The position numbers were made by a program, and so were the translations under genes. From NCBI RefSeq assembly GCF_041146345.1, contig NW_027191406.1, forward strand, positions 1,364,001-1,428,000: a stretch of 64,000 bases of DNA. The letters run 5' to 3'. Below are positions 49,656 to 56,791 of the stretch, in pieces; position 1 is the stretch's first letter, and each line of letters begins with the position of its first letter. Source of the stretch: Neodothiora populina (lineage: Eukaryota). The notes below the pieces were generated by a model, which had not been told where the DNA came from, did not search any database, and was given only the letters and a program-made list of their open reading frames with translations.

Positions 49656-50705
49656 ATGGATATCAAGACATTCTACCAAAGCATGCCCAAGGCCGAACTC
49701 CACGTCCACATAGAAGGCACCCTAGAGCCAACCATGGTGCGGGATCTCGCATCCCGCAACAACATCCCCTTACCACGAGCACTCTCAGCACTCGAACTCA
49801 AAGGCACGAACAACTACGCCTTCGACGACCTAAGCTCCTTCCTAGCAGTCTACTACGGCGCCATGGGCGTCCTGCACACCTCCCAAGACTTCTTCGACCT
49901 AGCCTACGCCTACCTGCTCAAATGCCGCGCGCAGAACATCGTCCACGCCGAAATCTTCTTCGATCCCCAAGCCCACACGTCGCGAGGCGTGGCCTTCTCA
50001 ACTGTGATCACTGGCCTCCGAGACGCGCTCTCGAAGGCTCAAGTCGAACTAGGCGTCTCGGCGCAGCTGATCATGTGTTTCCTGCGCGATATGAGCGCCG
50101 AGTCGGCAATGGCGACTCTGGACGAAGCGCTCTCTTCTCCGTACAAGGAATGGATCTCGGGCGTCGGCCTCGACAGTGACGAGAGAGGGAATCCGCCTTC
50201 GAAGTTCGCGGCTGTCTTCACGCGTGCTAGACGTGAAGGTGCGGCGGCGGGATGGAAGCTGACGTGTCATTGTGATATCGACCAGGAAAACAGTATCGAG
50301 CATATCCGGCAGGCGGTTCGGGATATCGGAGTCGATAGGATCGATCATGGTACTAATATCGTTGAAGATGGAAAGCTTGTGGATGAGGTTCGTGGTAAGG
50401 GGATTGGGTTGACTTGTTGTCCTATCTCTAATTCTGTGGTCACGAGAGACTTCAAGGGCAAGGAGATGATGGAGCTTATGGACAGGGGGGTCAGGGTCAC
50501 TGTCAATTCGGATGATCCGGCGTATTTCAGGGGTTATGTCAATGAGAATCTGGCGTTGATGTGCGATGGTACGCATGTCGGTTTCAAAGAACTGACACAG
50601 CTTCAGCGCAATGCATTTATGATATCTTGGATCGATGACGAGCAAAGAAACAAGTTCTTGAAGTCATTGGACGACTTTGTGGAAGCATCTGGGGTAAAGC
50701 GTTGA
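49656..50705 (+). CDS. Adenine/adenosine deaminase-family amidohydrolase (variant active site)
   Basis: PKAELHVHIEGTLEP, EIFFDPQAH, GLDS, DRIDHG, CPISN, VNSDDPAYF; intronless; ATG at 49656. Confidence 0.9.
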   Translation: MDIKTFYQSMPKAELHVHIEGTLEPTMVRDLASRNNIPLPRALSALELKGTNNYAFDDLSSFLAVYYGAMGVLHTSQDFFDLAYAYLLKCRAQNIVHAEIFFDPQAHTSRGVAFSTVITGLRDALSKAQVELGVSAQLIMCFLRDMSAESAMATLDEALSSPYKEWISGVGLDSDERGNPPSKFAAVFTRARREGAAAGWKLTCHCDIDQENSIEHIRQAVRDIGVDRIDHGTNIVEDGKLVDEVRGKGIGLTCCPISNSVVTRDFKGKEMMELMDRGVRVTVNSDDPAYFRGYVNENLALMCDGTHVGFKELTQLQRNAFMISWIDDEQRNKFLKSLDDFVEASGVKR

Positions 50706-54366: not shown

Positions 54367-54375
54367 CTATAAAAG
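54367..54375 (+). promoter_or_regulatory. TATA box candidate for the GH78 gene
   Basis: ctataaaa about 70 nt upstream of ATG 54442. Confidence 0.5.
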
Positions 54376-54441
54376 GTAGGGAAAAGTTCTCTATGGGGCC
54401 GATACATTGTGAGTATACAACTCAATCAATTTGCATGCAAG

Positions 54442-56791
54442 ATGTTCGGTAGGTCTTCTGCAGCTATAGCTGTGTTCTCGCTTCTATGGAGCATTCATCA
54501 TGTTCAAGCAACCCAATACTCTGAATATATTCTGGCGCCAAAAGAACGAGTCCTTGCACCAGTAAGCGTTCACCGCGCCAACGGGTCAGTCAGCAATGCT
54601 GCTGGTGTCACAGAATCGGGAAGCGGCAACATTGTCTTTTCGAGTGTCTCCGCTGTGACATTCGACTACAGCAAAAACATCGGCGGCTTGGTTTCTTTTG
54701 TTGTTGATCAGGTGTCCGGACCAGGCCAATTCATCGGCATCTCTTACTCAGAGTCATCGATGTGGATCACTCCGGATGGCTCAGACGCTACTCAGAATAC
54801 CGCCATTGACGAAACATTGTGGTTTGAGATCACCGGTCCCGGCAATTACACGGTTGACGAGAAGCACGATCGTGGCGGTTTTCGATACCTGAACATTTAC
54901 CACAACACCACAGGGAACATCTCACTCAGCGAGGTCACCACATATTATACTGCGATGCCGCATTACGCCGGTGATGCGATGGGAAACTATACTGGGTACT
55001 TTCACAGCAATGATGAGAAGCTCAATCGTGTCTGGTACGCTGGTGAGTTATAACTTTGACTGCTGCTTCTAGATTTATATTTTGACTTACGTACACTCAG
55101 CCGCCTATACATGTCAGCTATGCACAATTCCCAGCACACACGGCAACTCCCTGGTTGACTTGGCTGCTACGGATCCGGATGTACCTACGTTCTGGTACAG
55201 CAACTCTACCCTCACCAATGGGATCTCGGCGCTTGTTGATGGGGCCAAACGAGACAAGCTGATCTGGCCTGGTGACTTCAGTATATCAGTATGTGCTCTA
55301 TTCCATAAGGGATCCAGATGTTCAGATACTATAATGGCGACTAATGGCGTGAACAAAGGTTCCTGGTGTCTTCTTGTCGACAAATGATGCAGTCACGATT
55401 AAGCTATCCCTCGATCAGCTCTTCGCAGATCAGAAACCGACCGGTCAACTCCCTTACTATGCGCAGCCTGTACTCGCCATCCCCCAAAACGACTTTTTGG
55501 AGTTCGGACGTACTGTCTGGTCCTTCACCTATCATCTCTACTCTATACTTGGACTGAATATTTACTATACCTACACTAGCGACTTGGCTTACCTACAGGA
55601 GAACTGGAACCGAGTGGAACTCGCACTCAACTACAGCTTGAGCTTTATCGATGAGACTGGACTTGCAAATGTGACTGCTAGTGCCGATTGGCTGAGGGTC
55701 GGTATGGGTGGACACAACATTGAGGTATATATGAACCTTGTGAGGATTTTTCCCCTCAGCACATGACTGACACAAAACAGGCGAATTCGATACTGGCGTA
55801 CACTCTAGACACGGCGATAATCTTAGCCCAAAAACTTAATCAAACCGCTCATGTCTCGAAATGGACCAACACATCATCGACGATCAAATCGGCAGCCAAT
55901 GCTCTTCTCTGGGACTCTGCCTCGAATCTCTACTTCGACAACGAGACCACTACTCTCCATCCTCAAGACGGAAATGTATGGTCGATTTTATCTGGCGTCG
56001 CATCATCTTCCCGCGCGAGAGACGTAAGCACAGCCCTGGTGAACCGATGGACACCATACGGGCCACCAGCGCCCGAAGCAGGCGTGACAGTATCGCCCTT
56101 CATCTCCTCATTCGAGCTCCAGGCACATTTCATCGCCGCCACCACCCCAAGTACAAACAGCACAAACAGCAATAACACCAACCCCGCAACCTTGGCTCTC
56201 GACCTCATTCGTCTCATGTGGGCAGACTTTATGCTCGACGACCCGCGAATGACAAACTCGACCTTCAACGAAGGATACTCCGTTACGGGTGCTCTCTCCT
56301 ACCCAGCCTACGCCGACGACGCTCGAATCTCTCACGCGCACGGCTGGTCCACGGGTCCCATTATTGCTCTGACGAACTACGTCGCCGGACTGCACATCCT
56401 GGGCGACGGCAAATGGAACGTTAGACCCCAGCCGGGAGATCTGGAGTCTATTGAAGCGGGCTTCAAGATTGCAGAAGGCAAGTACTGGGCCGAGTATCGC
56501 TCTGCCAACACTACTACCCCTAGGTCAGCGACAGGAGGATTCGTTTATGAGTTCGGTACTCCCGAGGGAACAAGTGGTTTGTTGACGATTGACATTCCAA
56601 CGTCTTGTGCGGACGCAAGGGTGGAAGTGTCAAGCAAGGGAACAAAAGACAAGAGACACGGCAAAAGCGGCAGCGATGACAGCGGCAGACATGTCTACGG
56701 TGGGGGACACCATGGCGGTGCCGCTAACGGAACTATTGTCTTGGACAATCTGGAAGGTGGAGAGTACGTGGTCCACGTCTCGTGTTCTTGA
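54442..56791 (+). CDS. Secreted GH78-type alpha-L-rhamnosidase; exons 54442-55042, 55101-55288, 55359-55724, 55781-56791
   Basis: Signal peptide, RGGFRYL, LNRVWYAAAYT, DGAKRDKLIWPGD, HPQDGN, SPFISSFEL, EGY, SHAHGWSTGP. Confidence 0.88.

Follow-up and report, generated by a model that had tools for sequence, protein, structure and literature searches.

The adenine deaminases of cog1816, among them Pa0148 of Pseudomonas aeruginosa and AAur1117 of Arthrobacter aurescens, are amidohydrolases of the adenosine/adenine deaminase family. Aah1 of Saccharomyces cerevisiae and NadA of Aspergillus nidulans are eukaryotic members of the same branch and of similar size, and Aah1 carries the motif HAGE. In adenosine deaminase (ADA), the loop following beta-strand 5 bears the proton donor to N1 of the substrate and adjoins the exocyclic N6. 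Here we describe a gene of the fungus Neodothiora populina in which this loop is rebuilt and which may encode an enzyme for modified adenine. The gene occupies 49656..50705 on the plus strand of a 64,000-nucleotide stretch of contig NW_027191406.1 (assembly GCF_041146345.1, positions 1,364,001 to 1,428,000), referred to below as the window; all coordinates are those of the window unless a bacterial locus is named.

Goble and co-workers reportedly described Patl2390 of Pseudoalteromonas atlantica T6c in 2011 as a cytokinin or N6-alkyladenine deaminase. Enzymes of cog1001 are larger (about 580 residues), possess an additional domain at the C-terminus and bind two metal ions in the active site. 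In a study covering both groups, Patl2390 is placed in Group 3 of cog1816 and acts on N6-methyl- and N6,N6-dimethyladenine with kcat/Km near 1e6-1e7, while adenine and adenosine are not taken; its active-site residues are not given there (PMC13296781). According to the same source, the cog1001 amidohydrolases Bh0637 and Bsu06560/YerA prefer N6-methylated adenine over adenine (PMC13296781). A second paper cites the cytokinin deaminase and gives nothing further on Patl2390 (PMC13054789). The window protein belongs to the same cluster of orthologous groups as Patl2390 (cog1816), whereas Bh0637 and Bsu06560/YerA belong to another one and are not homologous to it at the subfamily level.

The gene is a single open reading frame (ORF) of 349 codons that runs from ATG to TGA without interruption. 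It is intronless, as the first-pass annotation had stated, and its nearest non-fungal relatives are bacterial. The bacterial homologues, likewise intronless, align over the full length (95-100% query coverage). The window protein matches PF00962 (A_deaminase; E 1.4e-74, 251.6 bits, residues 11-340) and passes the cut-off of TIGR01430. With NF006850, the closest NCBIfam equivalog model, it reaches 378.7 bits, which is below the cut-off of 419. A relative with the HAGE motif (L032) scores 522.1 bits in this model; three bacterial members with the HCD motif described below score 409-433 bits, one of the three above the cut-off. The closest solved structures found by HMMER against the PDB are 3ou8, 3pan, 3pao and 3pbm (phmmer E 1e-78) and 3rys (E 2.6e-71), which represent the cog1816 adenine deaminases Pa0148 and AAur1117. 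An AlphaFold2 model computed with 45 relatives as input has a predicted local distance difference test score (pLDDT) of 94.6 and a predicted template modelling score (pTM) of 0.93. Foldseek superimposes it on 3rys and 3ou8 with template modelling (TM) scores of 0.84-0.94 at 40-43% identity. The gene product is an intact (beta/alpha)8 amidohydrolase of the Pa0148-type branch, and the enzyme is probably zinc dependent. A look-up in the Protein Atlas returned only family membership for the window protein.

The positions of the active-site motifs are listed in Table 1. H16, H18, H205, H231, D286 and D287 are all present and invariant in an alignment of 45 sequences (alignment A1), and direct reading bears out the earlier view that the metal ligands (HVH, DHG, SDD) are intact. 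The invariance of the metal-binding and other catalytic residues argues for an active enzyme. The window enzyme would retain everything needed to bind one metal and to activate water.

The end of strand 5 reads WKLTCHCDIDQENS. It includes HCDIDQ at 50268-50285, exactly where the first-pass annotation had located it. In the model, the strand (residues 201-205) ends at H205 and is followed by the loop 206-212. The glutamate of the HxxE motif, three residues past the strand-5 His, is absent, and the aligned position is occupied by Gln210. Three aligners (HMMER against the PDB, hhalign of two family alignments, and MAFFT) agree on this assignment. They also agree on a two-residue insertion directly after the metal-binding His, with Asp207 inside the inserted part. 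The match to PF00962 and Gln210 at the Glu position thus support the proposal of a family member without the HxxE Glu. The accompanying idea that Asp acts as a shorter acidic stand-in for Glu is not supported in that form, because the Glu position is taken by Gln210 and Asp207 lies in the insertion. The protein is within the fold and the superfamily, yet fails one defining catalytic feature of its annotated family.

That we are dealing with a purine-binding pseudoenzyme, a non-purine hydrolase or an assembly contaminant is highly improbable. Members of this superfamily that lose the HxxE Glu are usually inactive, but the invariant residues include all four metal ligands, the strand-6 His and the second Asp, which is unexpected for a pseudoenzyme. 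Contamination is considered below with the fungal locus.

The motif is shared by a large set of proteins. The best 120 matches in a collection of 5.8 billion proteins (8000 scored candidates in each homologue search) comprise the window protein and 119 others with 57-71% identity; HCD-x-(D/N)-Q is found in 118 of these 119, the remaining one having no parsable region. Pooled proteins of 300-420 residues were picked by motif as HCD..Q (n=276) or H[AS]GE (n=74). All 276 HCDxxQ-type proteins have C206, D207 and Q210 without exception, and the same columns of the HAGE-type set hold Ala (73 of 74), a gap (73 of 74) and Glu (74 of 74). Only two further columns separate the sets, G251 versus Pro and W325 versus Phe. 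At the position of D209, the marine gammaproteobacterial branch has Asn. From the sequences, the HCDxxQ motif is a family signature and not a product of chance.

Phylogenetic analysis gave the same division. In a FastTree phylogeny of 118 rows, the proteins bearing the insertion (the HCD type and its variants) form one clade of 83 rows with support 99, apart from the HAGE type. The split is recovered with support 99 by IQ-TREE (LG+C20+F+G4) for 55 rows hand-chosen from the 118. In these phylogenies, the window protein thus falls outside the HAGE-type adenine deaminases, among rows that include no named fungal Aah1; nor did a cluster look-up turn up a fungal Aah1 among the basal HAGE representatives. 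Compared with Pa0148 and AAur1117, the window protein shares fold, length, HxH, the His after strand 5, DHG, SDD and the stretches FFDPQAHT and VNSDDPAYF. It differs in having HCDIDQ for HAGE (two residues longer, with a new Cys-Asp and with Gln where the Glu would stand), in G251 and W325 for P and F, in its separate clade and in its score below the NF006850 cut-off.

Fourteen divergent motif variants, drawn from the best 150 representatives at 50% identity, show which of the new residues is more strictly kept. The Asp at His+2 is present in nine of them and the Gln at His+5 in three, which would make Asp207 the best candidate for a relocated acid; it probably gives the proton that is normally delivered by Glu. 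Such a relocation could leave the reaction itself unchanged. The enzyme would then be an ordinary adenine deaminase that converts adenine to hypoxanthine like Pa0148 and Aah1, with the inserted Asp207 as its catalytic acid instead of the HxxE Glu. We consider this rather unlikely but a real possibility; it would suit the facts that the closest solved relatives are true adenine deaminases, that every other catalytic residue is kept, and that public sources annotate the named HCDxxQ-type proteins as adenine or adenosine deaminases, apart from a few listed as hypothetical. In mouse adenosine deaminase, replacement of Glu217 is strongly inactivating, and the invariant other motif, taken with the clean split in the trees, points to a changed constraint.

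Some deviating sequences were seen around this motif. The window protein has a four-residue insertion, AAAG (residues 196-199, 50241-50252, within REGAAAGWKL), just before strand 5 in comparison with most relatives; P0079 and P0085 carry an insertion at the same spot. A divergent copy from Dactylonectria macrodidyma (Hypocreales; P0130) reads HCDVDY and has lost the Gln; it sits on a long branch with the Chaetothyriales in the FastTree phylogeny. A second Pa0148-like group without the HxxE Glu (P0186, P0203, P0236, P0247, P0250) has H-G-G-H-D-G-P after strand 5 and forms its own clade (support 100) within the HAGE-type sequences in the same phylogeny. One actinobacterial HCD-type match, at G525:C1:2391824-2392816 and 89% identical to the Nonomuraea protein, contains an in-frame TAG and is possibly a pseudogene or a sequencing error.

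Bacteria that carry the HCD type often have a second enzyme of the branch. Whole-genome searches of five HCD-bearing bacteria revealed both HCD and HAGE Pa0148-type copies in Neiella marina and Nonomuraea purpurea. In the order of the Neiella genome, the HCD type is present in 5 of 401 genomes (motif checked, L096-L100), and four of the five also have a paralogue at 39-45% identity; the next 25 best loci of this sample all read HAGEEG. In the order of the Nonomuraea genome (Streptosporangiales), 26 of 201 genomes (25 of 200 without G415) have a match of at least 69% identity, and nine of the 26 have a second match at 46-52%, these assignments being based on identity only. A paralogue alongside, as found in the two named species and in four of five and nine of 26 sampled genomes, speaks against the HCD protein being an ordinary adenine deaminase.

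To this can be added the gene neighbourhoods. We surveyed 23 bacterial HCD loci, extending about 4.5 kb in both directions; in loci of high G+C, genes were called with a filter on the third-position G+C of ORFs. Clear nucleobase or purine genes were found beside the HCD gene in eight of the 23. In two Streptosporangiaceae loci (L004, L005), the HCD gene is tightly packed on one strand with an NCS1 permease gene and a cog1001 adenine-deaminase-like gene; L005 also has a PucR-type regulator nearby. An NCS1 permease gene directly adjoins the HCD gene in L027. In Bombilactobacillus (L012), the adjacent genes encode an NCS2 permease and a cog1001-like protein, and a gene of the IMPDH/GMP-reductase family is also present. 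The three cog1001 partners (L004, L005, L012) are divergent: all stay under the cut-off of TIGR01178 (373-391 versus 472.5 bits; 373-376 for the Streptosporangiaceae pair), and their best solved relative is 3nqb. In Neiella (L042), the HCD gene belongs to a cluster of the urate-oxidase/allantoinase type with genes for urate oxidase, a polysaccharide deacetylase and a cupin. A phosphoribosyltransferase gene and a nucleoside phosphorylase gene lie near the HCD gene of L010. Surroundings devoted to purine uptake and catabolism would also be appropriate for an ordinary adenine deaminase. Such an enzyme would, however, be redundant where the HCD gene adjoins a cog1001 adenine-deaminase-like gene, which is the case in three lineages.

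The remaining two of the eight loci come from related gammaproteobacterial metagenome-assembled genomes (MAGs; L041, L080). A xanthine-permease-like gene and a gene for a long ADGF-like deaminase are divergent to the HCD gene, which is followed on its own strand by an 8-oxoguanine deaminase-model gene and then by a gene for an S-adenosylmethionine (SAM) hydroxide adenosyltransferase. The matches to the 8-oxoguanine deaminase model, NF006055, are well defined (675 bits in L041 and 652 bits in L080, cut-off 532). These operons make ring-modified aminopurines a serious alternative as substrates. The enzyme would then clear or scavenge damaged or unusual bases such as 8-oxoadenine, isoguanine (2-oxoadenine) or 2,6-diaminopurine. 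Besides the apparent co-transcription, the presence of another non-canonical deaminase beside it in Streptosporangiaceae and Lactobacillaceae would suit a base with two groups to remove, and Gln at the N1-contacting position would fit a substrate that already has N1-H. We nevertheless judge ring-modified substrates to be unlikely, since only two MAGs, closely related to each other, supply the operon evidence and the fungal and actinobacterial branches have no tie to oxidised bases.

The genes of these two MAGs form a compact shared module (L041:950-6921 and L080:5127-12270), with the NCS2 permease and the ADGF-like deaminase on one strand and the HCD side on the other; L080 adds an alpha/beta hydrolase. 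Its gene content suggests that the module scavenges damaged or unusual purines. A further observation concerns Streptosporangiaceae. The row of permease, cog1001-like and HCD genes is closely preceded by a gene for a UbiA-family prenyltransferase (L004:3494-8990, L005:3853-8990), and in another locus such a gene is directly upstream of the HCD gene (L001:7116-8996). This proximity may be inherited synteny only; it is noteworthy beside a candidate N6-prenyladenine hydrolase.

Strict motif conservation, a separate clade, frequent HAGE paralogues, and an adjoining second adenine-deaminase-like gene and permease together suggest a substrate different from plain adenine. A difference in specificity had been anticipated in the first-pass annotation and appears plausible, as bacteria often keep the HCD type beside a HAGE paralogue or another adenine-deaminase-like gene. 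Our leading interpretation, to which we attach an even degree of belief and which is drawn from sequence comparison, is that the window protein is an aminohydrolase for modified adenine, with N6-alkyladenines as the first candidates. The enzyme would hydrolyse the C6 substituent of an adenine-type base other than plain adenine; the product, hypoxanthine or something closely similar, would feed purine salvage or serve as a source of nitrogen. N6-methyladenine and cytokinin bases would be the leading candidate substrates, followed by the ring-modified aminopurines. N6-alkyladenines are placed first for two reasons, the precedent of Patl2390 and the geometry of the active site: the rebuilt loop adjoins N1 and N6 of the substrate and so could alter what fits at N6.

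The reported specificity of Patl2390 is of the kind proposed here for the window protein. It is plausible, and somewhat better than an even guess, that Patl2390 itself is of the HCDxxQ type. Strain T6c is presumably now placed in Paraglaciecola. Profile searches with the gammaproteobacterial branch detected HCDVNQ proteins in Paraglaciecola marina, P. arctica, Paraglaciecola sp. L3A3, sp. MB-3u-78, sp. 2405UD69-4 and an uncultured Paraglaciecola, and also matched Aliiglaciecola, Brumicola, Colwellia, Alteromonas, Marisediminitalea and Cellvibrio. The T6c protein was not among the best 120 matches of these searches, nor in cluster look-ups. The gammaproteobacterial HCD branch is about 50% identical to the fungal protein, from which it differs by Asn instead of Asp at His+4.

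The HCDxxQ subfamily is large, sharply delimited and mainly bacterial, with members in Actinomycetota, Chloroflexota, Lactobacillales and marine Gammaproteobacteria. A scan of prokaryote genomes returned 80 loci, of which 26 are of the HCD type (49-60% identity to the window protein) and 54 of the HAGEEG type (42-49%). Names on the side of the Actinomycetota are Nonomuraea, Nocardia, Streptosporangium, Streptomyces, Brachybacterium, Propionibacterium, Galbitalea and Phytoactinopolyspora. The other HCD loci come from Chloroflexota, Enterococcus, Bombilactobacillus, Ligilactobacillus, Marinimicrobium, Neiella and several MAGs.

Fungal members are found in Dothideomycetes, Eurotiomycetes and Cirrosporium among the named top matches, plus one variant from a Sordariomycete. 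In the FastTree phylogeny, 12 named fungi and the window protein fall within one clade of 33 rows (support 100), and the fungal clade of the IQ-TREE analysis (21 rows) also has support 100. In the best IQ-TREE tree, this clade lies inside sequences of Actinomycetota and Bacillota; the sets around it comprise 29 rows (support 92) and 30 rows (support 97). Within it, the Chaetothyriales group together, as do four Dothideomycetes, to which the window protein is sister (support 86). The window protein has its nearest non-fungal relatives among bacterial HCD-type proteins and not in the HAGE type. This pattern would most likely reflect one horizontal transfer from a bacterium to Pezizomycotina, followed by vertical inheritance, with the direction inferred from the tree. 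Literature searches in open full text, with most subscription papers outside their scope, found no mention of the HCDxxQ motif, an adenine-deaminase clade without HxxE, a fungal member or a transfer; the orthologue of Cladophialophora immunda is not mentioned in the readable supplements of PMC5595782.

The ORFs surrounding the gene encode a PAK-type kinase, a VHS-SH3-GAT protein, a cytochrome b5-like fragment, Sfi1 and a DUF5915-bearing protein. The G+C content of the gene is 0.52-0.55 and matches the surroundings. Contamination of the assembly was rejected on account of these ordinary fungal neighbours, the size of the contig (1,546,563 bases), the matching local G+C and the orthologues in 12 named fungi in one clade.

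Several points speak against a special enzyme for modified adenine. No activity data were found for any HCDxxQ member. The HAGE-type adenine deaminases are said, in the study of Pa0148, to take N6-methyladenine as a side substrate, so that a special enzyme would not be strictly required. A HAGE-bearing side branch, represented by the Neiella paralogue L082, is another possible home of Patl2390. No purine-related gene neighbours the gene at the fungal locus, and 15 of the 23 bacterial loci have no clear purine-related neighbour either: 13 show nothing, and two are ambiguous, with an NMT1/THI5-type ABC transporter upstream (L008) or a phosphoribosyl pyrophosphate (PRPP) synthetase (L014). In 17 of the 26 Streptosporangiales genomes, no second Pa0148-like match was found at E <= 1e-50; there the HCD protein, which is likewise the only Pa0148-like gene product in G278, may simply serve as adenine deaminase. 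For the evolutionary part, an approximately unbiased (AU) test in which the 19 bacterial HCD rows were forced to be monophyletic, a group defined after the tree was seen, cost 25.3 log-likelihood units and did not reject this arrangement (p 0.139). The nested position of the fungi is therefore not statistically secured, and a single transfer is the best fit but not proven.

Table 1. The HCDxxQ-type gene of N. populina and its active-site motifs in the window.
Feature	Position	Strand	Basis
HCDxxQ-type adenine-deaminase-like amidohydrolase, coding sequence, intronless, 349 aa plus stop	49656..50705	+	ORF list, PF00962, model
HVH (H16-V17-H18), HxH metal ligands after beta-strand 1	49701..49709	+	Direct reading; H16 and H18 invariant in alignment A1
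HCDIDQ (H205-C206-D207-I208-D209-Q210), metal-binding His at the end of beta-strand 5, then the replacement of HAGE	50268..50285	+	Direct reading
DHG (D230-H231-G232), His after beta-strand 6 (equivalent of ADA His238 by homology)	50343..50351	+	Direct reading; all three invariant in A1
SDD (S285-D286-D287), Asp-Asp after beta-strand 8 (one metal ligand and one catalytic Asp, by homology)	50508..50516	+	Direct reading; D286 and D287 invariant in A1

Elsewhere in the window, three consecutive open frames (226, 137 and 355 aa) lie at 54373-56791 on the plus strand and have no Pfam match at E <= 1e-5. The first of them has a hydrophobic stretch at its start, and the three frames are probably parts of a single gene, split by introns, whose product would be secreted and belong to an unplaced family.

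A wider proposal can be made for the subfamily, tentatively and with more doubt than confidence. HCDxxQ proteins would be a deaminase family with an inserted Cys-Asp in place of the near-universal HxxE Glu and the home of N6-alkyladenine hydrolysis including Patl2390; in bacteria they would act in a so far undescribed module for nucleobase scavenging, with a dedicated permease and a second non-canonical deaminase, and some ascomycetes would have taken the gene over from bacteria and with it a route to destroy cytokinin bases or methylated adenine. A role in plant interaction through cytokinins is possible for N. populina, with nothing that points to it specifically. Most of the named fungi with the gene are black yeasts, form lichens, inhabit rock or live as saprobes on wood, and these lifestyles lend it no particular support.

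Should the HCDxxQ proteins prove to have a substrate of their own, many existing annotations would be in error, and a gap in the known turnover of modified adenines would be filled. For enzymology, the HCDxxQ proteins would, if the proposal is true, represent a natural experiment in which a catalytic acid has been relocated within the amidohydrolase superfamily. For fungal biology, the gene is a candidate for acquisition from bacteria, and it may give black yeasts, lichen fungi and wood saprobes access to a wider range of nitrogen sources.

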